IMG/VR virus record: IMGVR_UViG_3300028534_000002
DNA: 64,000 bases
DNA from: a virus
Direction: 5' to 3' (one strand)
Position numbers and translations under genes: made by a program. Shown piece after piece: positions 3,301 to 63,318 of the stretch (position 1 is its first letter; the number at the start of each line of letters is the position of its first letter). The notes under the pieces are model-generated. The model made no database searches. It saw only the letters and a list, made by a program, of their open reading frames with translations, and was not told the DNA's origin.

Positions 3301-5556
3301 AAATATTTTTCTTAATATCTCTGATAAGTATGCTGTCAGAACATCTATTGACCTATTTATTATTCCAAAAATTTTATTTCCACTACCCTTTAGTTTTCTT
3401 ACTTCTGCAAGTCTCGATAGTGCCTCATCAACTTTTGAAGGCACATCTTGTATCTGTATATCTTTTATAGCATCAAATAAGTAGCTATTTGACATTGCAT
3501 ATGCCATGAACTCCTCTATGTCTGCTCCATCTGATAGTATGTAATCAAATTTTCTTTGTATCAATTTCTCGTCTTCAGGAGTTAGTGATGTTGCACCCTC
3601 TTGAACCATTTGAATAGTAAAGACATCTGGACCAAGTTGCTTCTTAACTTCTCTTCTAAGATCCTCGAATGCTTTTCTCATTTTCAAATCTGAATCAAAT
3701 GCTCTTTTAAATAGACTGTGTAAAAGCTCGTGAAGCATTACCTCAGATGCAGAACTTGTTTTATCTGCAGGGTTGAACAGTACCTTGATAGCATCCCTAT
3801 CCTCCTGGTTCTCAAAGTCGAAGTCAGGTGTCCACATACCTTTTGTATTTGTACTATCTGTTACTCCAAGCGAGAAATCTATTTTTGTACCGTTATTCTT
3901 CATTACATCTTGAATTATTTTTAGTACTCTATCCATGTGATCATAATAGTCTTGAGTAATGTTAAGTACCTTTCCTGAAGCCATATCTACTTCTTGTACC
4001 ACCCTACTAAACACATCTCCAAGATTATTTTCTGTCAACAAGTCATTCATAAGTGCCGTCTCTGGAGTTAATTCAACAATGTCATCTGATGATCCCTTAT
4101 TGTAATCTTTATCAAAATTTGGTTCATGACTCTTATCAAATACTACAGCAAGTGACTCTGACAGTAGTGTTCTCTTATCATTATTTTTAACATTTTTTAG
4201 AAAGTGATTTAATATATCTTTTATGTGATCTAGGATTGTTTTTTTACCGTAGACTATCTTGTCTAACTCATCTCTAAGATCTTGTTTTTCGAGTAGTGTT
4301 GCAGTAAACTCATGCTCATTTGTAAACGCATATGTATCTTTCCATTGTGGGTTATGTTTAAGCGCTTCATTCATCAGCTTTTTGATTCTTTTTCTGTAAG
4401 AAGGATTTGAGTTTATCTCTTTTTCTGTAACCAAATGTCCAATTTCATGAATAATAACAGCATACGGATCAATGCTATTGTCTTTAATATTTGCAATATC
4501 GATTCCAATTGAATTTCTTCCTGCATATTGAATACCAGCTTTTCCAAGATTTTCTTGTAGCTTTATTTCAATGTCACCATTTATAGAGCTTAAAAGCAAG
4601 TCTATACTGCGTTTCTCGTCTTCGGTAATGTTTCTGTCAATGTCAGACAACAAGTCCTCTATATCGCTTACTTTTGAAGTTTTAATGCTTGGCTTCATAT
4701 TGTTGAATACAATTTTTCCGTTATCAAGCTTTTTTAGTATCTTGTATTTCTTTTGTTTCTTTCTTCCTTTAAAGAGTCCTATACCATCCTTTTCTCCGTA
4801 TTTATAGTTCTTTGATAGCTCTTCTTTTAATTTTCCTTCTCCTTGACTGTTGTACTCTCTGCTTGAATTTTTGTTGTCATCCAATAGAATAGTTGCTCCA
4901 GCATCTAGCGCTTTTTTTGCTTCTTCAAGAGTTTTATTAAAGTTTTCTTCAGTTATTTTCCCTTTTCCATTTATAGACAAAAACACAATATCATCTGAAG
5001 TATATTTTCCAGAATTTACTCTATCGGCGTGATCTTTTGATAGGACTGATGCATACTTTGCTGTACTTGAACCAGGTGCACCAAACCCTATAAATTTAGT
5101 TGCCTTAGACAGCTTTTTAGGAGCTTTTGTGCTGTCGGCCTTATTTGGACTTAGATTAACTTTTCTAAACGATTCTAGGTCGCCTTGTGTTCCATCTTCA
5201 AGAAATCTAGACTTTCCGTCATCTTCAACATTTGTGAACCAGTCTTTTACCTTGTTGTATGTATCCTCCTGGTTCTTTGTTAGTTTCTGTCCACTATTAA
5301 GCTTTTCTACTGCAGTAAAGAATGCATTTTTTTTTGCACCAAGTTGTCCGCCAGTAAGATCAGGAAACACCTTGTCAAATCCAAGTTCTTTTGCTGTTTT
5401 GCTTCTGCTAAATCTCTCTGGATGAAACTCAGGTCTGAGTCCTTTTCCTAGATCCTCTTTTATAGCTAATATATCTTTTTGAGAAAGTGACTCTTTCTCT
5501 GCATTATCAAGTTCTCTCATTAATGCGTCAAATCGCATTTCACCTGTACAAGCCAT
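349..5556 (-). CDS. giant 1735-aa multidomain protein with two HExxH zincin motifs (putative packaged/ejected polyvalent-type protein)
   Basis: Uninterrupted 1735-codon ORF with AGGAG 6 nt upstream of the ATG. HEIGH at aa 370-374 (nt 4435-4449) and HELLH at aa 609-613 (nt 3718-3732). Last gene of the late operon, directly downstream of the vRNAP-like gene. Confidence 0.6.
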   Translation of the reverse strand: MACTGEMRFDALMRELDNAEKESLSQKDILAIKEDLGKGLRPEFHPERFSRSKTAKELGFDKVFPDLTGGQLGAKKNAFFTAVEKLNSGQKLTKNQEDTYNKVKDWFTNVEDDGKSRFLEDGTQGDLESFRKVNLSPNKADSTKAPKKLSKATKFIGFGAPGSSTAKYASVLSKDHADRVNSGKYTSDDIVFLSINGKGKITEENFNKTLEEAKKALDAGATILLDDNKNSSREYNSQGEGKLKEELSKNYKYGEKDGIGLFKGRKKQKKYKILKKLDNGKIVFNNMKPSIKTSKVSDIEDLLSDIDRNITEDEKRSIDLLLSSINGDIEIKLQENLGKAGIQYAGRNSIGIDIANIKDNSIDPYAVIIHEIGHLVTEKEINSNPSYRKRIKKLMNEALKHNPQWKDTYAFTNEHEFTATLLEKQDLRDELDKIVYGKKTILDHIKDILNHFLKNVKNNDKRTLLSESLAVVFDKSHEPNFDKDYNKGSSDDIVELTPETALMNDLLTENNLGDVFSRVVQEVDMASGKVLNITQDYYDHMDRVLKIIQDVMKNNGTKIDFSLGVTDSTNTKGMWTPDFDFENQEDRDAIKVLFNPADKTSSASEVMLHELLHSLFKRAFDSDLKMRKAFEDLRREVKKQLGPDVFTIQMVQEGATSLTPEDEKLIQRKFDYILSDGADIEEFMAYAMSNSYLFDAIKDIQIQDVPSKVDEALSRLAEVRKLKGSGNKIFGIINRSIDVLTAYLSEILRKIFSPKQNIGKTGDEIMKQTLQDVHAFQLKQQFLLANETFSDTLRGYSNAPLFIGQSLETAATVIDAMGAVTGPIEDGVRKILEQKDKIISKLDPKSNKVVANAIDGIQRISFMKKILTSRVLKNLMFQNFTTNKYQALLQLKRQKQAIEAMMTNISAEITNIVSNTELANPDNTYNSYVYVNRVLKSGMYEYIDEFDYSSMSLRSQAKRKANEALDELSKSYNMTDSVKEHLDAIAKWTLDGKVHIENQQINPQNVLLRYFDPLRRSIGESKVTATNKDIELANKYVTMKALESMTDDELIAIEVMHENPKLNEEMKHVTKLYKSRIEAYKNSEFIDNSRFNSLPFGFIDNKTGTAKYQISLVHDNDIKTFKSTVGKIELIDSFEIGGEKFYRVKHGEDAVPYEDGVLGSISIGVKGNGIKSIIAALYNAKKISTPDSMKDLTVAQFTDKMLKQMLSQKKDDIFKSDDGLVLMPKHDKNGRLIDWILPLSDDDIKSIGAPIDIMSSLPYTIERLVNARQTSIHNRKAVDVIEQFYSDTKYDDKYSKKDFIVISKNKNKDLWDKLSPSVKKYINDMHNGVLHLPDEILELMIGSRSASLANISMSDINPFSNNKDLLIKSYKIRKAIKTAEKIWGEILNKNKTVAILFNPDIGVGNFISNMMLMWSHGVNPYRYIKEFRNKWYQLEEYQDLSRQRISLALRKNFGEDVDDKLKILNKRIDLHPFAKLVKDGQFTAMIDDISDEPEGYIGHLINDLTEKGKNDREYYTQVVVEAYRRKAERGGDVNKYISEVEKELKNNKWKFRIPAELARTRALLYGSNGTQAHRTATQITMFADTLARQMLLEHMIKKKELTNKRKLTKREQQDILDFVDEQFINYGYNVSGLQMWVERVFGIQFLKYLFQHHKAYWKVIKRNPSAVAAQQTAQHVTGINIADPMDTLVDHGPADNIINRWQSDDPIEVISNLVTPNITTPLGIFDTDAWFKVYH

Positions 5557-5596: not shown

Positions 5597-8500
5597 CTAT
5601 AGACACCCTTTTGTTTTGTCTTCAAAATAAGCTTTGAATTTTTTCTTAACTCTGTCAATTGGAGGAATGTTCTGTTTTTTGTCATCAATTTTCTTGTTTG
5701 CATTTTTTCCAATAAACATATCATATACTCCGTATAAATTTAATCTCTCCTGCTTTAGAAGAGACTCAATGTAAGATACTGCTTTTTTAACGCTATCTGT
5801 CTTATTGTGAACCAGTTGTTGTTCAATGTCATTAATATCATATTTTAGTTCAAGTTTTTCAAAATCTATCGTTCTTGTAATAGCATTTATATCATTTACT
5901 GTTAACCCGTTTTTTGCAGCATCCAATTGAATAAACTCTCTCAACTTGGTTCCATAGAGTTTAATTATTCCACTGTACATTGCTTTAAAATCATCTGACC
6001 AATCTTCAATTTCTCTTGGTCGCTTTTTAGTATGAGCTATATTTACTTCAACAATTCCTGTTCCAGCAACAAACATCTGGTTACTAAAGATTTTATTTAC
6101 ATTTTTATTGAAGTATCTTATTCCTTCGTTGACAACATTTTTTCCATGTGTTATCGCAAATGGAATGCTTAATAAGTTGTGTCCAAGGAATCCCCAGTCT
6201 CCATCTGGCTCAATTGATGCCTCATGCTTTTCAACTGCTATTGTTTTTGTTAGCATTGTATACATTGGTTCTTTTGTTTTATTTTTTGTGTCAATGTATG
6301 TCTTTGTATCCTTTGTTACCTTTCTGTTTATAGCCGATATGGCATCGTCAACACTTAGATCAGCAACACTGTCAATATTAAGTGGTACAACTACAGGCTT
6401 AGTTGCTTTCATAAACATACCATTTGGAGCAACAGCGAACACTTCTGCTTTTGCTACAACCTGCCCAGAATCATCTTTAAACACATCTATTCTTGCTACA
6501 TTTACACCATTGCTGTCATTTATTGATATTGATGCATTTTCTCCATCATTTGACATTATGTATTTAGTTTTTCCTTGGTATCTTTTATTTAGCACCCTTT
6601 TTGGAGCTTTCCCTTTTTCCTTGAAATCAAGAACATATACTGGTGCCCTATTCGTCTTACCTTCAGTAACTGACACATTCTTCTTTACAACTTTTATATC
6701 GTTAGTAAGATTAAAGAAGGCATCTAGTTCATCTTCTGTCATAGACGATACCATCTTGTCTGCTTTTTCCTTATACAATTTAAAGTCCTGTCTCTCAAGC
6801 GACTTCGTAACCCACTCAGTGTTATATATATCTGTTGCATTAGTTATTTTAGATTGAACTGCTCCAACAATTATTGCATCATATATGTTTGTAAAGTCAT
6901 TGTTTTTTAATGATTCTTGCATTACTGACCCATCAAGAGAGTGAATGCTGATTGTTACTGCTGCTCCAGAATTGCTCTTGAAGGTTAGTCCATCAGGAGT
7001 TACAGATGCAAAGTATTCATTTCCGTTTACAACAACTCTTTCAAAATCTCTTGTATTTGATTTTATTGAGTTGTCTGTTTTATACAGTGGTTGTCTTGTT
7101 TCTCCATTATCTAAAGAGTGTCCAAAACCTGATTCATGCAATTTTATTACTTCTTCAAAATACTTTTTCTTTGAAATTGATCCATTCTTTTTTCTTATGG
7201 CATCAAGCTTAACTTTAAGCTTCGCATTGAATACACTAGATACAAGAAGGTCTGTCGCTTTAAATGCATTCCTCATGTCAGATATCTCTCCAAAAGCCTT
7301 GTTTAGTGCATGCTTATAGAAGCTACCTATTGTATTTCTTCCATATGCACTATGAACCATTGCGTGAACATCATCTGATATTTCAATGAATTTATATTGC
7401 TCATTTTTCTCAATCATTCTGCTAAGCTCAACGTCTGTTGGTTCTCTAAAAATATCTCTATCTTTGTCATATATTGAGTAGTTTTTTGTGTTAGAAACAT
7501 ACTCATTTGCAAGCTTTGCTCCGTCTCTCTTGAATGACTCAATATCATCTTTAGATGGATCTTTCTTGTTGCTGTTTCTGTATGAAACAATTAGATTTTC
7601 TACGTGAGAATCAGAAATTGCTTTCTTCAAAATGTCAATAGACTTCGACTCTTTCATTTTGTCACGTATTGCTTTTATAAATGAATTCCATGTTAACGCT
7701 CTCTGTATTGATGATATCATAGCACCATATCCAAACGTCATTGTTGGATCCTTTGACAGAAATCTTAACTCACTAAGTGTTCCTTCTTCAAATACCATTC
7801 CATATAGTCTCTTTGCAAAAGCTGACAATTTATCGAAATTTGTTTTCCCGTCTTTATCTCTTCTTGACTCAAAGGCTTTTTTTGCTTCAAGAGAATACTG
7901 TCCAACTGTTGTATATAGATCAAGGAAAGCATCATATTTATCTCCATCAATCTCTATTCTCTTTACAATTATTTCGCCATCTTTAAGTGTTTCTGTTTCA
8001 CCATTTACAATATCCATATGGTACTTACCAGCCTCAACGAGTGATCCATGTGACAACTCTATTAGATCTTCGTGTATACCATGCTTTTTTGATAGAAGGA
8101 ATTTTGCATACCTTTCAAGTCTCTGTTTTGATTTGTCAGTATAGATACCAGCCTTCTCTAGCATTTTCAGCTGATGATCCCCAAGAACCTTCATATTTAA
8201 TAGTGCAGGACCAGATGTAATACCGTCAGCCTCTCCGTACAGTACTGTTTCAAAACTTGCAGTATCACTGGTTCGATTAAGTTTTCTAAGCTCTTTTGCT
8301 GCCATTACAGAATGCGCACCTTCAAACTTATGGAAGATTGTAGCAAGATTATCACTATCTTCACCAATACCTTTTACATAGTCGCTTAATGCCTTCCACT
8401 CACTCTCGCCGTCTTTATACGTTATTGAAACATTGCCACCATAAACATCTATTCTGCTTCTAATGCTTTTAAATACGTTGTATTTACTGTTCTTGTCAGG

Positions 8501-11500
8501 ATCCATTCCGAATGACTGCGCAAGGAATACCTCAAACATTTCAGTATTAGATAACTCTTCTGTTATCGCTATTTCATCAACTAATCTTTTGGAACCAGGT
8601 CGTGTGTCTAGTTTCGACTTGTAGTCTTTTGAAATTACGAATGTTCTGTGAATCTTTGACTCTTGAACATTTAGGTCAGATTTAATTGTCATACGCTCTG
8701 ATTTTGTTACTCCCCATGGTATGTAAAATGAGCTTACAGTACCATCCTGGTTCTTCATAGATTCATAGTGTTTGACAAGAGCATCTGCTTCACGCTCATA
8801 CTTCTCATTGTGAGCCTTCTGAAGCTTCATTTCATCAATTGTCATGTCATTTGTAAGCTCAACGTATCCAAACTGTTTAAGCGCTTGTTTTTTGTCTTTT
8901 TTATACTCCTTAACAAAGTCTTCTGTTGTATCTGCAAAGAACATCTCTGTTTCGTTATTTTTCTCTATGTCTTTCTTGTGCTTGTCGTCAAGCTTTATAA
9001 ACGAATTTATTAGAGTATCGTTTTCTTTTACTTTATATGGCATCCTCTTTGGTGGTAATCTTTTTGATCCTTCGTTAATGTATTGTATATTTGAATAGTC
9101 TTCTTTATATTCCTTCCATAGCATCATTTTTTCTGTGTCAATCTGAACCATGTGCATATTCTTGCCTGTCACATTTTCTTGAATGATCTCTCCTGCATCA
9201 TTCTCAATAACTAATCCGTTTAAATTTGCACCAATACTTGCTTCTATTCCAGCCTCAACAAGTCTTGACGTTTCTATGTCAATGTTGCTATTAAACTTTA
9301 TTCCAAGTCTTGACATCACAACAGATTTAACCTCTGACTCAAGTGTTCGCATTGGAACAAACCCTTTGAATGCCATTGTCTTTAGTTTCATTGCAGAGAC
9401 ATTATCTATTCCGAAATCTTTTGATATATCATCTGTATCCATTGATGCTATATTGTTTTTTACTGATGAATAACTCATTAGAGCCATTACGGTACCAAAC
9501 TTCAATGCATCCTTAAGCTGCTCAGATTCAACTCCTATTGCACTTAATGATGACACAAAGTCTTTTCCATCAGTATGGAAAATTTTACCATTATTGTCAA
9601 CCTCTGTTCTTGTTGATTCTATGATTTTTATATCATCAATTCTATGCATATATTTAGATACGTTTACTACTGATTTTACAACACTTTCATCAATCTTGTT
9701 TAGTTCAGCCCATGCCAACAGCTGTTCTTTTGTAGCGTTAAACAAATTTCCAAGTCTTGATAGAACTGTCTTTTTTTCTTTCATATACGCTTTTATATTG
9801 TCGTTCTTAACCTCTTCTACAAATTGTGAACCAGCTGTTTTTATGTCTTTTATAACATCATTTGGCTTGCTTATTTTTGCATTTAGAGATGATTCTATTC
9901 TTAGCTTATTTGATGATTCTACTGTTGCTATATCAAGGAAAACCTTTACTGCAACATCGTTGTTATTGCCAAGCTCTTTCATCGCCTTATTGACATACTC
10001 TTTTGTTTTTGCTTCAATATCTCTTCGCTTCTCTTCGAGCTCGAGAATCTTTTTGCGTTGCTTACTTCCATCTCTATCATCATTTAGTTTTGATGATATC
10101 TGTCTTAGTCTTGTTATGAACCTACTTTCTGTATCTCCAAACCTATCCTCTATTTCATTTATATACTTTATATGCTTTGCTATATTCTCATTGTGTTGCT
10201 TCACTCTTTTCTCTATTTTGTTAGCTTGTTTATCAAACTCTTTTTTGCCAATTGTTCCGTTTTTTAGTTTGCCAGCAAGAACAGTAAGGTTCATTTGAAG
10301 ATCACTTATTCTTTTTTGCTCAGACATTATTGTATTCTTGTTTTTTTCTACTGAATTATTTTTCTTTTCAAGTGATTCTTTGTATCTGTTATAAATTTTG
10401 TCATATGCATCTTCTAGCTTTTCTCTTGAAGTCTTTGCGTATTCTGTTGCTTTATCTATCTTGTCAAGCTTTTTTAGCTGACTCTCTATATCGGATCTTA
10501 TCTTCTTGACTTGGTTCTGATATATCGATGCAAGTTTCATTAGTTTGTTTTTCGCAGAGCTTCTTAGAGACGATGAATCGTTTCCTTTTCTAGACTGCTT
10601 TACATCCTCTTTGAGCTTTTTCCTTAATGACTCTTCGCTCTCTTTATTAAGTTTATTCTCTAATTCTTTTTTCTTTTCCTTTGTAGACTCTATTGCATTG
10701 TCTATCTCATCTATAACTCTTTTTTTTGAACGAATGTCAACTTTGCCTTTGCTCTCATATGCGTCTATGATATCATAAACCTTTTTTAATGAATCTCTTT
10801 TTTTCATTAATTTTGAAATAGTATTTTTTATTTTCTTTAATGATTTTTTTAGTGCGTCTATTGCATCAAGCACTGCTTGCTTTGAATTAGCAAGAATAGA
10901 ACTATTGCCTCTGTGAGATTTCTCTTTTTTTAGATCAATATTTTTTAACTTGTTTTTCTCTAGTCCTTTTTCCTGTCTTTCTTTTGCTCGCTCGTACTTC
11001 TTTATCTTTTCGTCAACTTTTCTTAGTTGCTTCTCTATTGATTTCTTGACATTTTTCAGTACAACCCTGTCAGCATCACTTAGGTTTTTATCGTCCTTAG
11101 TCATGTCATTTAATCGTTGCTTTAGATATTCAAATTCTCTTATTTCAGCATCAATTGACCTTGTATCGTATTCACCTACAGAATAGCCACTTGGCTCACT
11201 ATCACCTTCATTTGCGTTATTTTCTTTACTGTTATTTTTTGACTCACTAGTTACTACTTGTTCGACTTGCTTCTGAATGTTTTTGTAATTTTCTGCATTG
11301 CTATTATTTTCTACTATATTTGCACTATTGTTTTCTGTTTCTTTTGTTGTACCATTACTATCACCTGGTTCGCTGTTTTTTTGTTCTATCTCAGAAACTC
11401 TTTTTGCAACAAGATCCCTTAACTTCTTGTACAGTTTATATGATAGTGCATTATTGTTTATTATGTTTGCAAATCCAAGTTTTACTTCATCAACTGTTTT

Positions 11501-14500
11501 TGCTTCAACCACTCCCTTCTCAAGCTCTTCTGGAATAGACTGTATAACATCACTAGACCTAGTATTCATTCTATGAGACAGATACTCAAGTTCGTCATCT
11601 GTGCCTTTTAATGTTCCTGAATTTATAGCGCCTACTATGTCAGTCTTACTGAATGTTCCAGATTCAATTTCTCTAATGAAGTCTCTTGCTGTCTTGCCTG
11701 AACCAGTCTGCAGTGGATTTCCTTTTCCAGAAATTATCCCTGCATACATCTTCATAAATTCATTTGCAGTCTGTGGGTCAGAGAATCCATTATTTATTGA
11801 AAATAATATTCTGTTTGCATCATTTGCTGTTTTTGCAGATCTTATCTCATTTCTTAGCTTTACTGCCTCGTCTGGATCCATTGTTTTTTCTTGTACTTTG
11901 TTTCCTTCTGAAAACTTTGAGTTTATAAATTTTGTTGCATCACTTACAGTTGCATCCTCAAAATCTCTTATAGCATTCTCTAGATTCTCTTTCTCGTTTG
12001 GGTCAATATCTTTTACTGTTGATAGTACATTCCTAGCAAGATTTGCTGCCCTAATATTTTCGTCACCAGTTTGAGCAACAAAATTATAAACACCTCTAAT
12101 AGGTGTTCCATTGTCACTTTCGAATCTCAGCTTGTTTTTTCTTTCTTTTGCCCACTCAGCAAGCATTTCTGAGCTTGCAAAACCATCATCTGATTCTCTT
12201 ACATTATCGATTAAGTTAGCTTCATATTGCTTAAGTGATGGCTTTAGGATGCTTCCTGTGTCACCAACAAATCCAACTATGTCAACTTCTGAACCAACAC
12301 TGTCAAGTGACTTTTCAAAAACGTCTGATGTATTGTATGCATTAACAACTGCTCTAGCTTTCTTTAGGTCTGTACTGTCAATTCCTTGCTTCTCGGCATC
12401 CTCTATTGCTATATCGATTGAGTCAATAATTCCGCCAAGTTTTCCTTTTACAGGGTTTAGTGTGTCAACTTTATTGTCTGTTGTAGCAGAGTCAAGTAAG
12501 CCACCAACGTCGCTTTCTACATCTGAACTAATGTCAGATCCTCTTGATTCGGCTTTATACAGATCAACAACATCACGTATTGCATCTTGGGCGAACTTGT
12601 TAAAGAATGAACTTTTCTCATCGTCACTTAAAGAATCTGATGCAAACAATGCTTCAAGCATGTCTCTTTTTACTTCCTTTGGATGCTTGCTTTGTCTGAT
12701 TACGCTTGCAGTATCTCTTGCAATTTTTTCCTTCATGTCTGATGTTAGGTTTTCTCCAAACTTGTCAAGCGTATCTTTGTATGTTTTTTCTACCTCAACT
12801 TTTAGTTTTTCTGGATCAGTTGTTTGTGCAATTTTTGATGCAAGATATTTTGCAGAGTCTTTTGATGCTCTTCCAACTGATTTTGCAAGATCTGCGCTTG
12901 CTACTGCTGCATCCTCAAGCTTGTTGTCTGTTGACATATTGATTGTACCGAGAGCTTTTCCAGCACTTGACATCGCATATGAACCAGTTGATGCTGTAGC
13001 ATGCGTAACAAATCCTGCACCTGCACCCATAGCCATTGCACCAATTGCCTCATCCTGGTTCTCTTTGTCGTTGTATGATTCAACAAATGTTTTTCCATCC
13101 ACTCCAACGTCTTTTCCTAAAATCTCTCCCCACGTTTGCAAGTACTCTTGGACACCTTCTTTGCCTGTAGCCTCTGCCATTCCAATAGACGTGCTATATA
13201 TTTTGCCAAGAACGCTTTTTTCGTACGATGTTCCCTTTACTGCATCGTAAGCACTCTTGAATGCAGACCTAAGCTGTGTTGACTTTATGATGTCGTCAAA
13301 CGCAACTTTATCTAATCCAGTTAGGAAATATTGAGATGCTGCTATAGCAGTAAACTCTCCAAGACTAATATCATCATCTCCATTTGCCATTCTTTCTTCA
13401 ATTACATTGTTAGTATTTTTTGCCCAAACAGATTTGAATCCAAAGTTTGTTGATGCCTCTTTTGCAAGAGATGTAAACGTTGACTGGTTCGCAAGAGTTT
13501 CTACGGCAGCAATATCTGCTCCTTCAGTCCTTAATGCAGTTTTAAGAGAATTTAACTCAGATGTATACTTCTTTACCTTTGCAATGTCTCCAGTTGCCTC
13601 AGCAACCTTCAGAGCTTTTTCTGTGCTAGAAAATTTCTTTGCAAGACTTGCAGCCTTAACACCAGCACCTGCACCTAGTGAACCAGTCATCAGGATCATC
13701 TCTGGTAGCGATTCTACCATTGTGTTACCTTTTGCACCTAGGTCATTAAATACTGCGTCAAAATAGTCTCCTCTGTTCCATGCAGCAATCGCCTCTCTTG
13801 TTGCCTCTGTTTGAGCCTGTGTATCATATCCAACCCACTTTGCTGCATTGTCAGATATTGTGTCTCCAATATTATCTTCTAGAGAATTTTCTGCACCAAG
13901 CTTTTCAAGCACGTATCCGAGCGATGTGGAACCAACATCAATAAGGTCTCCTCCAAGTCTTACAGCACCGTATTGAAAAGCATCTATTACACTATCTGAT
14001 CCAGTATGCTTTTTCCAGTACTCATTGCTACTTTGTAGTGATTTTTCAGCATTAGCATATGTGTCATCTCTAGACTGGTTCTCGTCGACTCCAAGTAAGT
14101 CTTTTTGATATAGCTCTGTGTATCCATCGTTGAAATTTAATCCACTTGATTTGTTGTTTCCCTTGTCTACTGCAATATTGCTTATGAATCTTTTATGAAA
14201 AGAGTTTTCATACTCTTCGGCTCCGCCAAACCTCTTATCCCACAGAAGCTCAATTCCTTGAGATGCAAAATTTCCTTTTACCCTGTCCCATGCGCCTGCT
14301 TTTGCGTATCCAACTTTATAGTTGTATTGATCATTACCATCTTTATCTTTTCCAGCATATTGTTTATATGAGTATAAAACATTTTGAGCATTTGGATCCT
14401 CTTCTACATTTTTTGCATAAGCAATAAATTCATTATCATCCATTTCGTCGAATGCATTTGCTGAACCAGATGCATCATAATTTTTATTTGCTCCAGATAC

Positions 14501-14812
14501 AACACGTCCATTATCATATATATCAAACTGGTAACTATCTCCTGCATCAAACACTGATGATACAAAGCTATTGTATTTAGATTTAAGAGATTTTGTCCAA
14601 TCACTGTCTTCTTTTAGGAATCCTCTATCGTCTAATTCAAGTTTGTTTCTCTGATCATGTAGTGGATTATCGTCTCTGTAGTTTCTGTAATTTGCTAGTT
14701 CATAGTCGTACAGGAATCTGTCTGCACTACTGTATAAATCATTTACTTCATCATCATAGGATGCAAGCTGATTTTGTAAGTTTTCAAATTCTGATGGCAT
14801 ATTTTTCTCCAA
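5597..14812 (-). CDS. virion-encapsidated RNA polymerase-like giant protein (N4 gp50-type vRNAP), 3071 aa
   Basis: GGAG RBS. T7-like single-subunit polymerase motifs read directly: motif A YGEADGITSGP (Asp2196, nt 8225-8227); motif B RFLSKDPTMTFGYG (R-x3-K-x7-YG, aa 2350-2363, nt 7763-7765 for the Arg); motif C-like SIHSLDGS (Asp2627, nt 6932-6934). A-to-C spacing of 431 aa is close to what I recall for N4 mini-vRNAP (about 390). Sits at the distal end of the late operon as in N4. Confidence 0.8.
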   Translation of the reverse strand: MEKNMPSEFENLQNQLASYDDEVNDLYSSADRFLYDYELANYRNYRDDNPLHDQRNKLELDDRGFLKEDSDWTKSLKSKYNSFVSSVFDAGDSYQFDIYDNGRVVSGANKNYDASGSANAFDEMDDNEFIAYAKNVEEDPNAQNVLYSYKQYAGKDKDGNDQYNYKVGYAKAGAWDRVKGNFASQGIELLWDKRFGGAEEYENSFHKRFISNIAVDKGNNKSSGLNFNDGYTELYQKDLLGVDENQSRDDTYANAEKSLQSSNEYWKKHTGSDSVIDAFQYGAVRLGGDLIDVGSTSLGYVLEKLGAENSLEDNIGDTISDNAAKWVGYDTQAQTEATREAIAAWNRGDYFDAVFNDLGAKGNTMVESLPEMILMTGSLGAGAGVKAASLAKKFSSTEKALKVAEATGDIAKVKKYTSELNSLKTALRTEGADIAAVETLANQSTFTSLAKEASTNFGFKSVWAKNTNNVIEERMANGDDDISLGEFTAIAASQYFLTGLDKVAFDDIIKSTQLRSAFKSAYDAVKGTSYEKSVLGKIYSTSIGMAEATGKEGVQEYLQTWGEILGKDVGVDGKTFVESYNDKENQDEAIGAMAMGAGAGFVTHATASTGSYAMSSAGKALGTINMSTDNKLEDAAVASADLAKSVGRASKDSAKYLASKIAQTTDPEKLKVEVEKTYKDTLDKFGENLTSDMKEKIARDTASVIRQSKHPKEVKRDMLEALFASDSLSDDEKSSFFNKFAQDAIRDVVDLYKAESRGSDISSDVESDVGGLLDSATTDNKVDTLNPVKGKLGGIIDSIDIAIEDAEKQGIDSTDLKKARAVVNAYNTSDVFEKSLDSVGSEVDIVGFVGDTGSILKPSLKQYEANLIDNVRESDDGFASSEMLAEWAKERKNKLRFESDNGTPIRGVYNFVAQTGDENIRAANLARNVLSTVKDIDPNEKENLENAIRDFEDATVSDATKFINSKFSEGNKVQEKTMDPDEAVKLRNEIRSAKTANDANRILFSINNGFSDPQTANEFMKMYAGIISGKGNPLQTGSGKTARDFIREIESGTFSKTDIVGAINSGTLKGTDDELEYLSHRMNTRSSDVIQSIPEELEKGVVEAKTVDEVKLGFANIINNNALSYKLYKKLRDLVAKRVSEIEQKNSEPGDSNGTTKETENNSANIVENNSNAENYKNIQKQVEQVVTSESKNNSKENNANEGDSEPSGYSVGEYDTRSIDAEIREFEYLKQRLNDMTKDDKNLSDADRVVLKNVKKSIEKQLRKVDEKIKKYERAKERQEKGLEKNKLKNIDLKKEKSHRGNSSILANSKQAVLDAIDALKKSLKKIKNTISKLMKKRDSLKKVYDIIDAYESKGKVDIRSKKRVIDEIDNAIESTKEKKKELENKLNKESEESLRKKLKEDVKQSRKGNDSSSLRSSAKNKLMKLASIYQNQVKKIRSDIESQLKKLDKIDKATEYAKTSREKLEDAYDKIYNRYKESLEKKNNSVEKNKNTIMSEQKRISDLQMNLTVLAGKLKNGTIGKKEFDKQANKIEKRVKQHNENIAKHIKYINEIEDRFGDTESRFITRLRQISSKLNDDRDGSKQRKKILELEEKRRDIEAKTKEYVNKAMKELGNNNDVAVKVFLDIATVESSNKLRIESSLNAKISKPNDVIKDIKTAGSQFVEEVKNDNIKAYMKEKKTVLSRLGNLFNATKEQLLAWAELNKIDESVVKSVVNVSKYMHRIDDIKIIESTRTEVDNNGKIFHTDGKDFVSSLSAIGVESEQLKDALKFGTVMALMSYSSVKNNIASMDTDDISKDFGIDNVSAMKLKTMAFKGFVPMRTLESEVKSVVMSRLGIKFNSNIDIETSRLVEAGIEASIGANLNGLVIENDAGEIIQENVTGKNMHMVQIDTEKMMLWKEYKEDYSNIQYINEGSKRLPPKRMPYKVKENDTLINSFIKLDDKHKKDIEKNNETEMFFADTTEDFVKEYKKDKKQALKQFGYVELTNDMTIDEMKLQKAHNEKYEREADALVKHYESMKNQDGTVSSFYIPWGVTKSERMTIKSDLNVQESKIHRTFVISKDYKSKLDTRPGSKRLVDEIAITEELSNTEMFEVFLAQSFGMDPDKNSKYNVFKSIRSRIDVYGGNVSITYKDGESEWKALSDYVKGIGEDSDNLATIFHKFEGAHSVMAAKELRKLNRTSDTASFETVLYGEADGITSGPALLNMKVLGDHQLKMLEKAGIYTDKSKQRLERYAKFLLSKKHGIHEDLIELSHGSLVEAGKYHMDIVNGETETLKDGEIIVKRIEIDGDKYDAFLDLYTTVGQYSLEAKKAFESRRDKDGKTNFDKLSAFAKRLYGMVFEEGTLSELRFLSKDPTMTFGYGAMISSIQRALTWNSFIKAIRDKMKESKSIDILKKAISDSHVENLIVSYRNSNKKDPSKDDIESFKRDGAKLANEYVSNTKNYSIYDKDRDIFREPTDVELSRMIEKNEQYKFIEISDDVHAMVHSAYGRNTIGSFYKHALNKAFGEISDMRNAFKATDLLVSSVFNAKLKVKLDAIRKKNGSISKKKYFEEVIKLHESGFGHSLDNGETRQPLYKTDNSIKSNTRDFERVVVNGNEYFASVTPDGLTFKSNSGAAVTISIHSLDGSVMQESLKNNDFTNIYDAIIVGAVQSKITNATDIYNTEWVTKSLERQDFKLYKEKADKMVSSMTEDELDAFFNLTNDIKVVKKNVSVTEGKTNRAPVYVLDFKEKGKAPKRVLNKRYQGKTKYIMSNDGENASISINDSNGVNVARIDVFKDDSGQVVAKAEVFAVAPNGMFMKATKPVVVPLNIDSVADLSVDDAISAINRKVTKDTKTYIDTKNKTKEPMYTMLTKTIAVEKHEASIEPDGDWGFLGHNLLSIPFAITHGKNVVNEGIRYFNKNVNKIFSNQMFVAGTGIVEVNIAHTKKRPREIEDWSDDFKAMYSGIIKLYGTKLREFIQLDAAKNGLTVNDINAITRTIDFEKLELKYDINDIEQQLVHNKTDSVKKAVSYIESLLKQERLNLYGVYDMFIGKNANKKIDDKKQNIPPIDRVKKKFKAYFEDKTKGCL

Positions 14813-52500: not shown

Positions 52501-52905
52501 ATGCTTAACTTCCAACCAACTACAATCGAAAGTAAAAAAGACCTTAAGACCGCTTCTCTCAAGCTTGGAGGCAAAACTCTTGATGCATTAGGAGCGTCTT
52601 TAGACGTTGTTACTGGCACAGCAATACTGTTGAATAAGTTAGTTGACAGCTTCGACAAGTTGTTGTTCGGCACAGCTCAGTCTCAGATACAGGACTTGTT
52701 CGATGAAATGCTTGAAGCTATCAAACAGTTCGACAGTAACGACTCCAGAGACAATCTCCACCTCAAGGCAATGAGAATATCAATTTTCATAGAAAGTTCT
52801 ACAGAAGTCAAATCAGACTTCAAGCAATCAGATACGTACAAGATTGCGAAAAGTATGCTTGACGATTGTGGAATCGTTGCGCTCAAGAAAGAGGGAGAGG
52901 CTTAG
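52501..52905 (+). CDS. early protein, family A (134 aa), paralog of 61133-61534
   Basis: RBS AAAGGA. Same length as the paralog, with position-matched DLK (aa 14-16), L..G...L, F..MLE and MRISIF. Confidence 0.7.
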   Translation: MLNFQPTTIESKKDLKTASLKLGGKTLDALGASLDVVTGTAILLNKLVDSFDKLLFGTAQSQIQDLFDEMLEAIKQFDSNDSRDNLHLKAMRISIFIESSTEVKSDFKQSDTYKIAKSMLDDCGIVALKKEGEA

Positions 52906-52927: not shown

Positions 52928-53252
52928 TAACATCACTGCAACATCACAGTCATATCACTAAACCGATAATGGGTCAAGGGGAGTCGCATTCAAACTCCCA
53001 CAAACAAACCAGAACCAATGCACTACACACAAATACACACCATACCACACAGTATATACAACACAGTACACGTCACACACGTGCACATCTGTCTAGTTGG
53101 TTCTGGATAGTCTTGCTCAACATGTCACCTAACACACTGCTTGCCTTATGTACTGCAGACTAAATATTGTTTAGTGCTACAGACTCAACTTTCTTTATAC
53201 CTGTACTATTGGGTTTCTTGAACCAGTGCATAGTAGATGCCGTTCAAATCCC

Positions 53253-53272
53253 ACAGTTTCGGGCTTTCTGGT
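53253..53272 (+). promoter_or_regulatory. conserved 20-nt motif TTCAAATCCCACAGTTTCGG (copy 1)
   Basis: 18/20 identical to 57497-57516. Intergenic, 24 nt after a GAACCAGT. Confidence 0.5.
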
Positions 53273-53539
53273 TTAAGTCGTGAACAAAATTTGTCAAATC
53301 CAAAACTTACCTTCAATATATAATGTAAGTTCGACTTTTGATTTCGACCTAAATTTTCCTAAATCAATATTACCTTTTCAAATTTAACATTGAACTAACC
53401 TTCAATCTTTTTGATACTGGTAGTATTGGTATCAACCTGCTGTTGCTCATCTTTGAGCTAACCTTCGTCTACTCTCTGTCATTGTGGAGTAGATTTCGAG
53501 ATCCAGTGATCTTGATACAATTAATACAAAGGATTAACT

Positions 53540-54097
53540 ATGGCACAAATTACTTTCGGAAACACTACACAAACTACTTCAATTTCTACTACAGCAATTG
53601 ATTACTCTATTCTAACAGACGCTGAGTTGGTTCAAGAGTTGTTTAACCTTCTTACCAAAGAGCAACGTCAAGAGATTCAGAACATGAGCATTGGCTTAAA
53701 GCCTGCGTTAGACGCATTAGCAGAACTAAAATCTGCTCTCGTGTCAAAGTTTTCTAATGTCCGAGAGGACTTAATCGAGGAGAAACTAGCAAACGCTTTG
53801 GCATTGGCCAAACGTGAATATGGTTCATCTCTTCGATTCGTTGATGGCAACTTGGGTCTAATCAAGTTCCTAAAATCTGATGAGAAGCTTGATTCCGATA
53901 ATTTCAAGTTCTTGGCATCATTGTCACAAGAGCCAAAGCCACTTGAGGTAATGTTCCTAGAAAGCGGTTTGAGAAAACTGCTTGAGATTAGTGAGAATAT
54001 TCTCAGAGATGTGCCGTCTGAGTTCATTATTGAACTCAAGCGTCGCATCAACGGCATCAAGCCGTTAGAAGATGACGCTCTCGATGGCATCTTCTAG
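53540..54097 (+). CDS. early protein, family B (185 aa), paralog of 60479-61000
   Basis: RBS AAAGGATTAACT-ATG. Roughly 40% identity by eye to the 173-aa protein (SIGLKP, KLA.ALALAK, VDG.L..IK, LEVM.LE.GLRK, RING.KPL.D.ALD). Confidence 0.75.
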   Translation: MAQITFGNTTQTTSISTTAIDYSILTDAELVQELFNLLTKEQRQEIQNMSIGLKPALDALAELKSALVSKFSNVREDLIEEKLANALALAKREYGSSLRFVDGNLGLIKFLKSDEKLDSDNFKFLASLSQEPKPLEVMFLESGLRKLLEISENILRDVPSEFIIELKRRINGIKPLEDDALDGIF

Positions 54098-54136: not shown

Positions 54137-54250
54137 TAGTTTGGACTGATGGAGCATATTTCGGTATGTTCCACAGGTTTAAACTGCTATACAAAACATT
54201 CGAGTCTCTAGTTTCATGGCTAGAGATGCTTTAACCACAAAGGATTAATC

Positions 54251-56038
54251 ATGAAAACAACTGAAATAAAAACTAACAATACAAACGCTGTACTCAACTA
54301 TAACCAAATCGTTGAGTTGTTAAGTTCTTACAACTTCCCAATCTCTATGACCGATTACGTTAGTCAAATTGCTTCAATCATTAATATTACTGATGTAATG
54401 GTTGATTCTAACCGATTGGTTGAGGATCACCCTCTTATAGATGAACTAATAGGTAAAGTTGTTGACAAGCTACTTTACCAACCTCAATACAAAGAGATTA
54501 ATGATGGAAGTTTCATGTTCAAGAAGTCTCTCATCGCTGTTGCAGGAACTATCATTGAGAACTGCATCCCTTGGTCTACCAAGGTTGTCAAGTACTTTGA
54601 TGAGAATGGGAACTTGTGTACCCGTGAGACCAAGTATTTCTCAAATGCCTCAGATGAGGAGTATGTAGAACCAGAGTATGCTCGCCTTCCTGAGAAATAT
54701 GACGCAACGTACGTCATGAAAGGGAGCAAAAAGCAAATTGAATGTGTCATTCGAGAGAAGCATCTCAACATGCTATCTCGACAAGAGTTCATGGTTAGAG
54801 CAATTGACCATGACTTAGTGTATACCTATGCTAACATGAAATTCAGTGAGAACGTAGGGAATGTCAAATATTCTCCATCCAAGTATCTCAAAGAATTAGA
54901 GAGTTTCGCCAGTGTTACCATTGCCCACGCTGGGTTCCGCTATTCAAACATCCGTAAACTTGATGGGTCTGGAAGAGACTATCCTGCTGTTTCAATTGGA
55001 TTTGCAAAACAGTACGGAGATAGTTTCGAAAAGTTCCTCATCGAGTCTGACTACACTTATGTAGTAACTAAAGAAGACGTTAAACTTGCCAAAGAATTCA
55101 TCAAGGAAGAATTTAAGGTTAAGTCTTGGAGAAAGCTGTTCGAGCGTTCTTCCAAGGCTATAGAGAAAGCTAGACGGCTTAATGTTGTATTTCAAACTGG
55201 ACGAAAAGTTAAGTGGAATATGACATCAAAGGAGTTTGGTGAGGCTCTCTGGATATGTGATATTGTTAATAATATCATATACAATGAGGGAGGTGTATCA
55301 TCAAGCTACATCATGGCTGACCTAACAAACTCTGGGGCAATCATGACTGCCTACCAATTTGGAGACGAAAAGTATATGCGTGTTGCCAACTTATTAGGAG
55401 GCGATAAGATTGACACTCACCAGCTTGTTGCGGACTTCTTTGGTATCTCTCGCAAAGAAAGTAAAACCAAGTTTGTAGGTGCCACACATGGCGCTAGAGT
55501 AACAGATGAACTTGTTGAGTGTAAAGATGAGGTGTATGGTGAGCGGTTCGACTATATCAGACTTATCGCAGAGTACGGCATTAAGCTTGCTAAAGCAGGT
55601 GTTCCATACGTTGAGATGATTCAGCGTGATGGTATGAAAGTTATTTGGGAACCGTATATGCGAAACTGTAGAGTTAGCTTAGAGCTCTCAAATCTCTCTG
55701 TTCATGCGATTATGCCCTTTACTCAAGGACTCGAAGGTAGTCCAAAAGTAAGTGGTCTCTATGCAAGAATGGTACATAGCTGTGACAGTTATGTACTTAG
55801 AAAGATTCAGCGTCAGCTTCATGACAAAGGCATTCATGTTAAGACTACGCTTGATTGCTATTATGTGCGTCCATCGCTCAAACCAATCATTGTTAGTATG
55901 GTTTGGGATGCATTGAAAGATTTGGACAGTTGGTTCAAAGAGCAAATCAAGTATATCGAAGAGCAAACAGGAATCAAGGCTGATTTCGAGTTGCCAAATC
56001 GAGAACTTGATGTTGTGGAAACATCAAACATTATGTAG
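54251..56038 (+). CDS. compact T7-like single-subunit RNA polymerase (N4 RNAPII-equivalent, single chain), 595 aa
   Basis: DGSGR (T/DxxGR, aa 238-242). Motif A MADLTNSG (Asp357, nt 55319-55321). Motif B RKESKTKFVGATHG (R-x3-K-x7-HG, aa 401-414). Motif C-like VHSCDSY (Asp512, nt 55784-55786). DxxGR-to-A spacing of 119 aa matches T7 (about 116). Lies in the early block as in N4. Confidence 0.65.
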   Translation: MKTTEIKTNNTNAVLNYNQIVELLSSYNFPISMTDYVSQIASIINITDVMVDSNRLVEDHPLIDELIGKVVDKLLYQPQYKEINDGSFMFKKSLIAVAGTIIENCIPWSTKVVKYFDENGNLCTRETKYFSNASDEEYVEPEYARLPEKYDATYVMKGSKKQIECVIREKHLNMLSRQEFMVRAIDHDLVYTYANMKFSENVGNVKYSPSKYLKELESFASVTIAHAGFRYSNIRKLDGSGRDYPAVSIGFAKQYGDSFEKFLIESDYTYVVTKEDVKLAKEFIKEEFKVKSWRKLFERSSKAIEKARRLNVVFQTGRKVKWNMTSKEFGEALWICDIVNNIIYNEGGVSSSYIMADLTNSGAIMTAYQFGDEKYMRVANLLGGDKIDTHQLVADFFGISRKESKTKFVGATHGARVTDELVECKDEVYGERFDYIRLIAEYGIKLAKAGVPYVEMIQRDGMKVIWEPYMRNCRVSLELSNLSVHAIMPFTQGLEGSPKVSGLYARMVHSCDSYVLRKIQRQLHDKGIHVKTTLDCYYVRPSLKPIIVSMVWDALKDLDSWFKEQIKYIEEQTGIKADFELPNRELDVVETSNIM

Positions 56039-56070
56039 CCTAAAGGCTACATAAGTTATACTTTTTTTTA
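56035..56070 (+). terminator. terminator after the RNAP gene
   Basis: GTAGCC-taaa-GGCTAC (includes the stop codon), then ataagttataCTTTTTTTT. Confidence 0.55.
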
Positions 56071-57397: not shown

Positions 57398-57670
57398 TTT
57401 TGTATATATCTGCATTGTTTTGTATATATCTGCAGAACTATAGGAACAATAGGAATAGTTCTTGTTTCTTGCATTGTTCCTGCATTGTTCCTGTTTTTCA
57501 AATCCCACAATCTCGGTCATTTCCTATTGTTCTTGTTGTTCTGCGAGAATATGGCATATTATTGTTCTTGTGTCCAATTGTTCCTGTTCTAAACTCAGGA
57601 ATAATACAAGAATAATAAAGAAAATAATAGTTCTTATATTTTTTTAACATAATATTACAAGAACTATTGT
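57398..57670. repeat. iteron-like repeat array (candidate replication origin or operator array)
   Basis: TGTATATATCTGCA x2 with period 20 (57401-57414, 57421-57434). GCATTGTTCCT x2 in tandem (57471-57492). ATTGTTC(T/C)TG at 57526, 57561 and 57577. Inverted copies AGGAACAAT (57442) and CAAGAACTATT (57659) versus AATAGTTCTTG (57454). Confidence 0.7.
57497..57516 (+). promoter_or_regulatory. conserved 20-nt motif TTCAAATCCCACAATCTCGG (copy 2)
   Basis: 18/20 identical to 53253-53272. Lies inside the iteron region upstream of the ATPase gene. Confidence 0.5.
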
Positions 57671-57706
57671 ATACTTGTAGTGTATTATATTTTCGGAAAA
57701 GAGTTA

Positions 57707-60478: not shown

Positions 60479-61000
60479 ATGAAATACAGTAAAATGACAG
60501 ATATTGAATTAATCAGCTTAGTTACAGAGAAGTTATCTCCAGAGCAAATTGCTGAGATTAATAATCTGAGTATTGGCCTCAAACCAAAGGCTGATATGCT
60601 TGATGAGGTAAAAAAGACTTTGACTAAAAAGTATCCTGATATTAGAGAAGAGCTTGTTGAGCTTAAGCTTGCCAAGGCCTTAGCACTGGCAAAGAAGCTT
60701 TACCAAAGCTCTCTACATATCGTAGATGGTCATTTGGCTGTTATAAAGACAATCCATATGGACGATGAACTGGATAAGCTCAATGAGAAAGAGTATAAGA
60801 ACTTCCTGTTCATGGCCAACCTCAAGCAAAGCGTTAACACATTAGAGGTGATGGTGCTTGAGCAAGGATTGAGAAAGGTGATGTCAATTAGTAGCAATAT
60901 TCTACTTGATCTCGAGCCAGAGTTGATCGTCGAGATCAAGAAACGCATAAATGGAGAGAAACCTCTACCAGACAACGCACTAGACAACGTAATATTCTAG
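60479..61000 (+). CDS. early protein, family B (173 aa), paralog of 53540-54097
   Basis: See 53540-54097. RBS TAGGAG. Confidence 0.75.
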   Translation: MKYSKMTDIELISLVTEKLSPEQIAEINNLSIGLKPKADMLDEVKKTLTKKYPDIREELVELKLAKALALAKKLYQSSLHIVDGHLAVIKTIHMDDELDKLNEKEYKNFLFMANLKQSVNTLEVMVLEQGLRKVMSISSNILLDLEPELIVEIKKRINGEKPLPDNALDNVIF

Positions 61001-61132: not shown

Positions 61133-61534
61133 ATGGCAATATTAAGTAGAGACATAATCAATACACCAAGCGATTTAAAAGGAGTAGCATTAGATACTGG
61201 AGCGGAAGCATTATTTGCTACCAGAGAAGTATTGAGAGTTACAACAAATACTCTTCAACTTATGAACATGATGTTAGAGCGTATGGCTCATGCACTTGAG
61301 TTGATCAATAGTGAAGAGTTAGATGATGCATTCTCTAACATGCTTGAGTCACTTGAAAATATTAAGCGATCAGAAGAGTTCACCGAGGATGAGAAGAAAA
61401 ATCTGTCTTTAATGAGAATTTCTATTTTTGAGATGAGATCCAAAGAAATTGTAGAAAAAGATTACGATACTCATCCAATCAAAGATACAATTGAAGATCT
61501 TAAAAAGAAATACAAAGCAACTAAGAGGGGATAA
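61133..61534 (+). CDS. early protein, family A (133 aa), paralog of 52501-52905
   Basis: See 52501-52905. RBS TAGGAG. Confidence 0.7.
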   Translation: MAILSRDIINTPSDLKGVALDTGAEALFATREVLRVTTNTLQLMNMMLERMAHALELINSEELDDAFSNMLESLENIKRSEEFTEDEKKNLSLMRISIFEMRSKEIVEKDYDTHPIKDTIEDLKKKYKATKRG

Positions 61535-62347: not shown

Positions 62348-62425
62348 AAAGTAATAAAACATATCATTTATTACAATATTTAAAAAATATATCAATTAGC
62401 TTACAACATGAATTGTTCTACACAT

Positions 62426-62449
62426 TAAAATAAGCACTTTTTAGTGCTT
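62426..62449. repeat. 24-nt hairpin repeat TAAAATAAGCACTTTTTAGTGCTT (copy 1; candidate terminator)
   Basis: AAGCACT-tttt-AGTGCTT; identical to 63295-63318. Confidence 0.8.
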
Positions 62450-63297: not shown

Positions 63298-63318
63298 AAT
63301 AAGCACTTTTTAGTGCTT
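63295..63318. repeat. 24-nt hairpin repeat (copy 2; candidate terminator)
   Basis: Identical 24-mer overlapping the stop of the ATPase gene 62647-63297. Confidence 0.8.

Follow-up and report, generated by a model that had tools for sequence, protein, structure and literature searches.

The gene at 54251..56038 (+) of the viral DNA analysed here (IMG/VR record IMGVR_UViG_3300028534_000002; a stretch of 64,000 nucleotides (nt), hereafter the window) encodes a polymerase-like protein of 595 amino acids (aa), and raises the question of what such an enzyme makes when a histidine occupies the position of Tyr639 in T7 RNA polymerase (RNAP). To our knowledge, the residue at the Tyr639 position is generally regarded as invariant, both among single-subunit RNAPs and among family A DNA polymerases. 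Textbooks credit this tyrosine with discriminating rNTPs from dNTPs, and engineered replacements of it underlie enzymes that make 2'-modified RNA. Our analysis makes it quite likely that the gene encodes the non-virion, middle-gene, DNA-dependent RNAP of a divergent N4-like phage, and that this enzyme is an unsplit homolog of N4 RNAPII reduced to 595 aa. The kind of enzyme is itself known; what is new is an unsplit, minimal N4-RNAPII-type form in which a conserved pair of histidines stands for two active-site tyrosines.

The 595-aa protein groups with RNA polymerases

The open reading frame (ORF) begins with ATG, and an earlier reading of the window, made from the sequence alone (the sequence-only reading), had described it as a single-chain polymerase of the T7 superfamily. 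The ORF listing and the profile and fold matches bore this out. When the 595-aa protein was searched as a single sequence, the PDB gave no match and PHROGs gave one marginal match to 'RNA polymerase' (E 0.0028). A word-indexed homolog search with a profile added none beyond the first six homologs; the profile of six sequences had no match in the PDB, and nothing could be concluded from hhalign of a shallow profile against the N4 subunits. When 1.84 billion representative proteins were then searched exhaustively by profile, 109 relatives were brought together, mostly of 550-700 aa. A family profile was built from 78 full-length relatives, and a core alignment of 97 sequences was used for clade counts.

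Only the 78-sequence profile reached known structures. In the PDB it matched N4 RNAP2 (6DT7_B, E 5.9e-32), T7 RNAP (E 1.2e-28), mitochondrial RNAPs (E 1e-23 to 1e-26) and N4 RNAP1 (6DT7_A, E 5.6e-11), and it matched Taq and Klenow at E 0.06-0.8 through the fingers alone. Alignment to T7 RNAP by hhalign paired window aa 230-595 with T7 412-880 (probability 99.1). The AF2 model of the polymerase had a pLDDT of 75, with the core above 85, and in a Foldseek search of the PDB all of the top 50 matches were mitochondrial or T7 RNAPs (best E 4e-12, TM by query ~0.5), with no Pol I among these 50. A structure search of BFVD likewise gave E 1e-12 for phage RNAPs, with DNA polymerases only at E > 2e-3. 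Because the similarity to RNAPs is larger by >25 orders of magnitude than that to Pol I, assignment of the protein to the T7-superfamily RNA polymerases, rather than to the Pol I type, is well supported by these profile and model comparisons, and its product is accordingly expected to be RNA.

Active-site motifs correspond to those of T7 and N4 RNA polymerases

Residue numbering for T7 was verified against the T7 sequence. The DxxGR motif (D238-G-S-G-R242, DGSGR; 54962..54976, +; translation checked) corresponds to T7 D421-R425, and its arginine, R242, was present in 78/78 relatives and aligned with T7 'DWRGR' and N4 RNAP1 'DKRGR'. Motif A (D357-L-T-N-S-G362, DLTNSG; 55319..55336, +) corresponds to T7 D537...G542. 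Its catalytic aspartate, D357, was found in 78/78 relatives and G362 in 77/78. The sequence-only reading had taken these two motifs as arguments for an RNAP, and the complete conservation of R242 and D357, together with their alignment to T7, agrees with it. Gly362 lies at the Pol I steric-gate position, five residues past the motif-A aspartate, and is glycine as in T7 (G542). In Klenow the steric gate is a glutamate, likewise five positions past the motif-A aspartate (D705/E710).

Motif B, on the O-helix, reads R401-x3-K405-x7-H413-G414 (RKESKTKFVGATHG, aa 401-414; 55451..55492, +; H413 codon CAT, 55487-55489). Its register is identical to that of T7 R627-x3-K631-x7-Y639-G640 and of N4 RNAP2 RNDCKQAIMTALYG. 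H413 paired with T7 Y639 in the profile alignments both to T7 RNAP and to N4 RNAPII (PDB 6DT7), and in the AF2 model a helix spans 401-413, the O-helix ending at residue 413. The histidine at the Y639 position was therefore correctly assigned, and the motif was not shifted.

Of the four landmarks named in the sequence-only reading, DxxGR, motif A and motif B stood, and motif C had been placed on the wrong aspartate, D512. This residue belongs to the HSxD element (H509-S-C-D512, HSCD; 55775..55786, +), the equivalent of T7 H784-S-Q-D787 and N4 'HSID', in which the histidine was present in 74/78 relatives and the aspartate in 71/78. The true motif C is K531-T-T-L-D535 (55841..55855, +), which aligned with T7 'IHDSF' and N4 'VHDCF', D535 being the equivalent of T7 D812. 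D535 was found in 75/78 relatives; at position 534, His was found in 60/78 and Leu in 13/78.

Six homologs with identities as low as 33% showed no change at D238, R242, D357, S361, G362, R401, K405, H413, G414, H509, D512 and K531-T-T-L-D535, a motif conservation far above chance in sequences so divergent. Among the 78 relatives, R242, D357 and K405 were invariant, and G362, R401, G414, H509, D512 and D535 were each conserved in at least 90%.

The spacing of the motifs had been read as closer to Pol I than to T7 RNAP. Measurement confirmed 44 aa between motifs A and B; the 111 aa given between B and C had been counted to D512 (= T7 D787), and the distance to D535 is 134 aa. The A-to-B/B-to-C spacings are thus 44/134 in the window enzyme, compared with 90/185 in T7, 59/208 in N4 RNAP2 and 47/179 in the enzyme of Alteromonas phage V19. 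In textbook numbering, Klenow has 49/128. The numbers are indeed near those of Klenow, but they carry no weight as an argument, as the A-to-B spacing of the V19 RNAP is also short (47). Short spacings reflect variable fingers insertions and loss of the T7-specific ones, not Pol I affinity, and the residue at +5 from the motif-A aspartate is a better sugar-related discriminator than motif spacing.

Two active-site tyrosines are replaced by histidine throughout one clade

At the Y639-equivalent position, the 78 full-length relatives had His in 69 cases, Tyr in 6, Ala in 2 and Asn in 1, and His was present in 77/97 core-alignment sequences. A rough neighbour-joining tree built on the catalytic core placed the His-bearing sequences in one clade, apart from the Tyr clade. 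The His413 codon varied among relatives (CAT or CAC), and histidine at this position appears to be a selected trait of the clade.

Besides 413, only position 390 separated the two clades cleanly when the alignment columns were scanned. His390 (55418..55420, +) is the equivalent of T7 Tyr571, the alignment here being anchored by N380 (= T7 N560) and D388 (= T7 D569). In this column, 95% of the His clade have His and 94% of the Tyr clade have Tyr. Joint states at 390 and 413 were H,H in 73 sequences, Y,Y in 15, Y,H in 4 and H,A in 2, with single cases of H,N, W,Y and Y,F, and none (0) of H,Y. This pattern suggests that the two active-site tyrosines were exchanged together, and shared ancestry may account for part of it. 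A search of the available literature for Y639H and for Y571 in T7 RNAP found nothing. Three members of the His clade (P0082, P0093 and P0065) have Ala or Asn at the Y639 position and keep His at the Y571 position; in effect, the ribose-sensing site of these members is a natural 'side-chain-less' variant.

Of 50,697 phage records, those of Alteromonas phages V19 and R22Y were the only ones with a His-type enzyme. The large His clade is almost wholly uncultured, with V19 and R22Y as its sole cultured members. That histidine was kept at the Y639 and Y571 positions over deep evolutionary time indicates that tyrosine is not obligatory there, and the clade provides ready-made natural variants for the study of ribose discrimination. 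No apparently complete T7-type polymerase smaller than its members of 564-595 aa was met in this analysis; such small size is useful for defining a minimal catalytic core, and possibly for biotechnology.

Predicted substrate choice of the His-His active site

By comparison with T7, the enzyme would use the standard two-metal catalysis of its superfamily. D357 and D535 would bind the metals, R401 and K405 of the O-helix would bind the NTP phosphates, and the retained RNAP-specific residues R242 and H509 would contact the nascent RNA end. Gly362 would admit the 2'-OH, and H413 and H390 would take the places of Y639 and Y571, the two tyrosines bordering the NTP site of T7. H413 most likely takes over the role of the tyrosine hydroxyl as hydrogen-bond partner of the ribose 2'-OH. 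Since histidine can donate or accept this bond, we infer that rNTP use is retained, with its stringency possibly altered.

The exchange of the ribose-sensing tyrosine for His, together with that of a second active-site tyrosine, could also point to an altered sugar selectivity, as raised in the sequence-only reading. The enzyme would then use dNTPs or 2'-modified NTPs efficiently, and its products would be DNA or mixed polymers, with a role, for instance, in replication or primer synthesis. The Tyr639 hydroxyl of T7 hydrogen-bonds the 2'-OH, and the Y639F, Y639V and Y639L enzymes are promiscuous yet active RNA polymerases (PMC4551944). The motif spacing numerically near that of Pol I would fit such a role, as would the fact that no DNA polymerase was seen in the readable part of the genome. 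Yet the RNAP-specific DxxGR motif and the primer-end-reading HSxD element are conserved, the steric-gate position is Gly and not Glu, and the protein resembles RNAPs more than Pol I by the margin already given. In addition, the imidazole of histidine should still be able to hydrogen-bond the 2'-OH, the position of the gene at the start of the early block matches that of N4 RNAPII, and V19 and R22Y encode a DNA polymerase I of their own (PMC11705849). We consider a changed product improbable. The statement in the sequence-only reading that product specificity was 'genuinely open' was thus too strong, in view of the clade-wide histidine, the glycine at the steric gate and the separate DNA polymerase of the cultured members.

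The enzyme is an unsplit counterpart of N4 RNAPII

N4 RNAPII is composed of RNAP1 (269 aa) and RNAP2 (404 aa). Their sum of 673 aa agrees with the ~670 aa quoted in the sequence-only reading, and the window enzyme is the smaller, as had been stated. By hhalign, N4 RNAP1 161-269, which extends to its C-terminus, aligned with window aa 169-273 (probability 95.9), and N4 RNAP2 8-393 aligned with window aa 278-583 (probability 99.4). The equivalent of the split point between RNAP1 and RNAP2, at aa 273-278 (55067..55084, +), lies here within a continuous ORF, and the 595-aa protein appears to be the colinear, continuous counterpart of RNAP1 plus RNAP2. Its reduction would involve shortening of the N-terminal region, of the fingers insertions and of the specificity-loop region, together with loss of the insert that N4 has between HSxD and motif C.

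Fusion of RNAP1 and RNAP2 had been raised as a possible origin. The single chain is the commoner state. In the tree, which is a crude neighbour-joining reconstruction from the catalytic core, both N4 RNAP2 and the short split forms fell within the Tyr clade alongside long single-chain Tyr forms, and T7 RNAP is single-chain too. For these reasons the unsplit state looks ancestral and the N4 split derived, and the window protein does not look like a fusion. A review from 2015 states that essentially all phages with a virion RNA polymerase (vRNAP) have a heterodimeric second polymerase (PMC4496689), a generalisation to which the His clade is an exception.

Candidate cofactors and promoter recognition

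Promoter finding is probably not achieved by the enzyme alone; by analogy with N4 RNAPII and LUZ7, small phage-specific cofactors would recruit it. Single-stranded DNA is the only form bound by N4 RNAPII, which requires gp1 and gp2; LUZ7 RNAPII binds an unrelated ORFan, Drc (PMC4496689, PMC7145618). From one N4-like genus to another, such cofactors are ORFans without homology to each other (PMC7145618). In the window, a conserved ORFan partner gene (185 aa; 53540..54097, +) immediately precedes the polymerase gene, and all seven related contigs have a homolog of it, with 30-55% identity, at that place. Searches with the 185-aa protein gave no match in PHROGs, the PDB, N4 gp2 or the RNAP family, and a word-index homolog search matched only itself. 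A paralog of 173 aa is encoded at 60479..61000 (+; 51% identity, E 5e-48). By position, and by analogy with the N4-like phages, the 185-aa ORFan and its 173-aa paralog are the best cofactor candidates.

A second early ORFan, of 134 aa (52501..52905, +), shares 81% identity with 8080-8484 of L004, the closest relative, and has a 133-aa paralog at 61133..61534 (+; 31% identity, E 2e-10). The early region holds a duplicated two-gene ORFan module (the 185/173-aa and 134/133-aa pairs) which matches nothing known; by its position the 134/133-aa pair, too, is a candidate source of cofactors. One could propose that the His390/His413 pair marks a natural class that reads the ribose differently, for example by relaxed or pH-tunable 2'-group discrimination or by tolerance of 2'-modified or deoxy substrates, and that promoter choice is made in trans by interchangeable ORFan factors, with the duplicated pairs as a sigma-like switch. 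As a combined proposal this is speculative, and we think it rather unlikely.

The polymerase might instead be autonomous in the manner of T7, recognising a linear double-stranded promoter without cofactors, and a 20-nt element, TTCAAATCCCACARTYTCGG, would be the possible target. The element has 2 copies in the window, against 0.01 expected, both upstream of + strand gene blocks. One copy (TTCAAATCCCACAGTTTCGG; 53243..53262, +), a promoter candidate of the sequence-only reading, lies in the long intergenic region 5' of the partner and polymerase genes; the second (57497..57516, +), also a promoter candidate of that reading, lies upstream of an ATPase/helicase-like ORF at 57680. The element is kept at the same place in L004, whose polymerase is 64% identical, and, unlike the N4 vRNAP promoters, has no conserved hairpin. 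In the AF2 model, moreover, a short beta-hairpin (strands 471-476 and 483-488) stands at the place of the T7 specificity loop. Against autonomy, there are only those two copies in 64 kb, the region corresponding to the N-terminal promoter-binding domain is far shorter (window aa 1-229 vs T7 1-411), and the closest characterised enzyme, N4 RNAPII, has the single-stranded preference and gp2 requirement noted above (PMC4496689). The copy upstream of the polymerase's own gene also fits an early (vRNAP) signal better. We therefore give cofactor-free recognition little probability and prefer a polymerase recruited by cofactors. The element is more likely to be an early (vRNAP) signal than the promoter of the 595-aa enzyme, because one copy precedes the polymerase's own operon, which another enzyme, presumably the injected vRNAP, must transcribe first.

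Two other identities for the 20-nt element were rejected. Its T-arm look (GTTCAAATCC) suggested a tRNA-like element, but ARAGORN found 0 genes and Rfam nothing, and an N4-type hairpin promoter was discarded as the copies have no hairpin in common. The intergenic DNA at 53150-53330 was ~90% identical to 8772-8952 of L004, which is above the coding conservation (polymerase protein 64%). Around the second copy, 57400-57680 is a long AT-rich intergenic region with short direct repeats (TGCATTGTTCCTG twice and TTGTATATATCTGCA twice), and inverted repeats of 24-26 nt (57432-57455/57521-57544 and 57618-57643/57651-57676) flank the copy. This region could be an origin or a regulatory region.

Observations that do not fit the assignment

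Several observations weigh against a cofactor-dependent RNAP as the product of this gene. As a single sequence, the protein had no Pfam match at E <= 10. With PF00940 (RNA_pol; cut-off 22 bits), members of the His clade scored 16.6-18.8 or gave no score, and Tyr-bearing relatives scored 42-47. The N-terminal aa 1-168 match nothing, and residues 114-172 were poorly modelled. In the subclade of the window, Leu534 stands where T7 has His811. Replacement of Y639 relaxes 2'-group discrimination in T7, so that by analogy His could change substrate choice, and the RNAP activity of the His clade is itself a prediction from sequence and model. In the readable part of the ~99-kb genome (all but ~23 kb), no DNA polymerase gene was seen. 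As to the partner gene, the single-sequence model of the 185-aa ORFan was unusable (pLDDT 41.5), the protein has no similarity to N4 gp2, and synteny is the one line of evidence that makes it a candidate cofactor. The sub-threshold PF00940 scores also have a practical consequence, in that the clade is likely to go unannotated in metagenomes.

A catalytically dead RNAP-like protein with a structural or regulatory role, to which the lack of a Pfam match and the loss of Tyr at T7 639 and 571 and of His at T7 811 might point, is scarcely credible, as both metal-binding aspartates, the O-helix Arg and Lys, the DxxGR arginine and HSxD are invariant or nearly so across a very deep clade, and strong conservation of the substituted positions as His suggests selection on the active site.

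Genome context and flanking sequences

The source of the window is a divergent N4-like phage genome of ~99 kb. Two adjacent ORFs, which mark it as N4-like, encode the vRNAP. The first (3070 aa; 5597..14812, -) matched phrog_2206 'virion RNA polymerase' at E 3.5e-27, with a weak match to Pfam vRNAP_dom_2, and the second (1734 aa; 349..5556, -) matched phrog_2206 at E 1.4e-39 over profile positions 1860-3372. Together they total ~4800 aa, compared with ~3500 aa in N4, and the first has ~1300 extra N-terminal residues. A candidate for the motif B tyrosine of this vRNAP ('RFLSKDPTMTFGYG', aa 2349) was found by regular expression, and its alignment was not confirmed by phmmer against the PDB. A vRNAP-based locus search found no close relatives, and viral and metagenome contigs scanned for exact matches, with the aim of extending the sequence, gave none.

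Portal and terminase genes lie in the same minus-strand late block as the vRNAP. The GC skew flips at ~52-53 kb, and the polymerase gene belongs to the early block, the first on the + strand past the strand switch, which resembles the placement of N4 genes 15 and 16. Beyond the window start lie, among others, genes for ribonucleotide reductase (RNR) and ThyX. A 43-nt repeat at 62407-62449 and 63276-63318, 3' of + strand genes, ends in a perfect hairpin, AAGCACTTTTTAGTGCTT, and is likely a shared transcription terminator.

The ATG of the polymerase gene is preceded by the ribosome-binding context ACAAAGGATTAATC (54237..54250, +), which contains AAGGA; a repeat search found the same context before the ORFs at 53526 and 58974. 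A perfect terminator-like hairpin, TTATGTAGCC-TAAA-GGCTACATAA (56031..56054, +), overlaps the polymerase stop codon. Immediately 3' of the polymerase gene is a 336-aa DUF723/HNH-type endonuclease gene (56084-57094, +). Relative L008 is without a DUF723/HNH-type gene at this position, and the gene looks like a homing-endonuclease insertion. Further mobile nucleases are close by: the RNR large subunit carries a LAGLIDADG/intein, and relative L007 has a SegE-like GIY-YIG gene.

Comparison with known polymerases

Family A (Pol I-type) DNA polymerases have the ancestral fingers and palm in common with the window enzyme, including an O-helix of the form R-x3-K-x7-(Y)-G. Their motif spacing is also near (Klenow 49/128 vs 44/134), but they have Glu at the steric gate where the window enzyme has Gly, and they are without the DxxGR and HSxD motifs that it contains.

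With T7 RNAP (883 aa) the palm and fingers core could be aligned, with D537, R627, K631, G640, H784 and D812 of T7 matched by D357, R401, K405, G414, H509 and D535. The window protein is ~290 aa shorter. T7 aa 1-411, the N-terminal promoter-binding domain and thumb, is compressed to window aa 1-229, and T7 Y639, Y571 and H811 are replaced by His, His and Leu, respectively. The small enzyme of a cultured phage, phiEcoM-GJ1 (648 aa), retains the tyrosine.

The RNAP of Alteromonas phages vB_AmeP_PT11-V19 and vB_AmeP-R22Y is likewise a single chain, of 670 aa, with the histidine ('RKDAKKLHQPLLHG') and HSxD present; over 96% of the window protein, the two are 20.6% identical. The Alteromonas enzyme exceeds that of the window by 75 aa, has 179 aa between motifs B and C as against 134, retains a canonical 'KHD' motif C and belongs to a separate subclade. 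These phages have a vRNAP, a second RNAP and DNA polymerase I in a Schitoviridae-like genome (PMC11705849); the histidine and the unsplit state of the second RNAP go unremarked in the annotation and in that paper.

N4 RNAPII (gp15 RNAP1 and gp16 RNAP2; PDB 6DT7) was the best profile match and is colinear with the window enzyme across both subunits. The two are minimal T7-type enzymes with the same motif set (DxxGR, A, B, HSxD and C), and both are encoded in the early region of phages that have a giant virion RNAP as well. They differ in being one chain of 595 aa in the window and two chains of 673 aa in N4, in having His rather than Tyr at the Y639 and Y571 positions and Leu rather than His ahead of the motif-C aspartate, and in the N-terminal 168 aa of the window protein, which are unrelated. 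From HSxD to motif C there are 26 residues in the window enzyme and 97 in N4, and it is mainly the absence of this insert of ~70 aa that makes the window enzyme shorter than N4 RNAPII.

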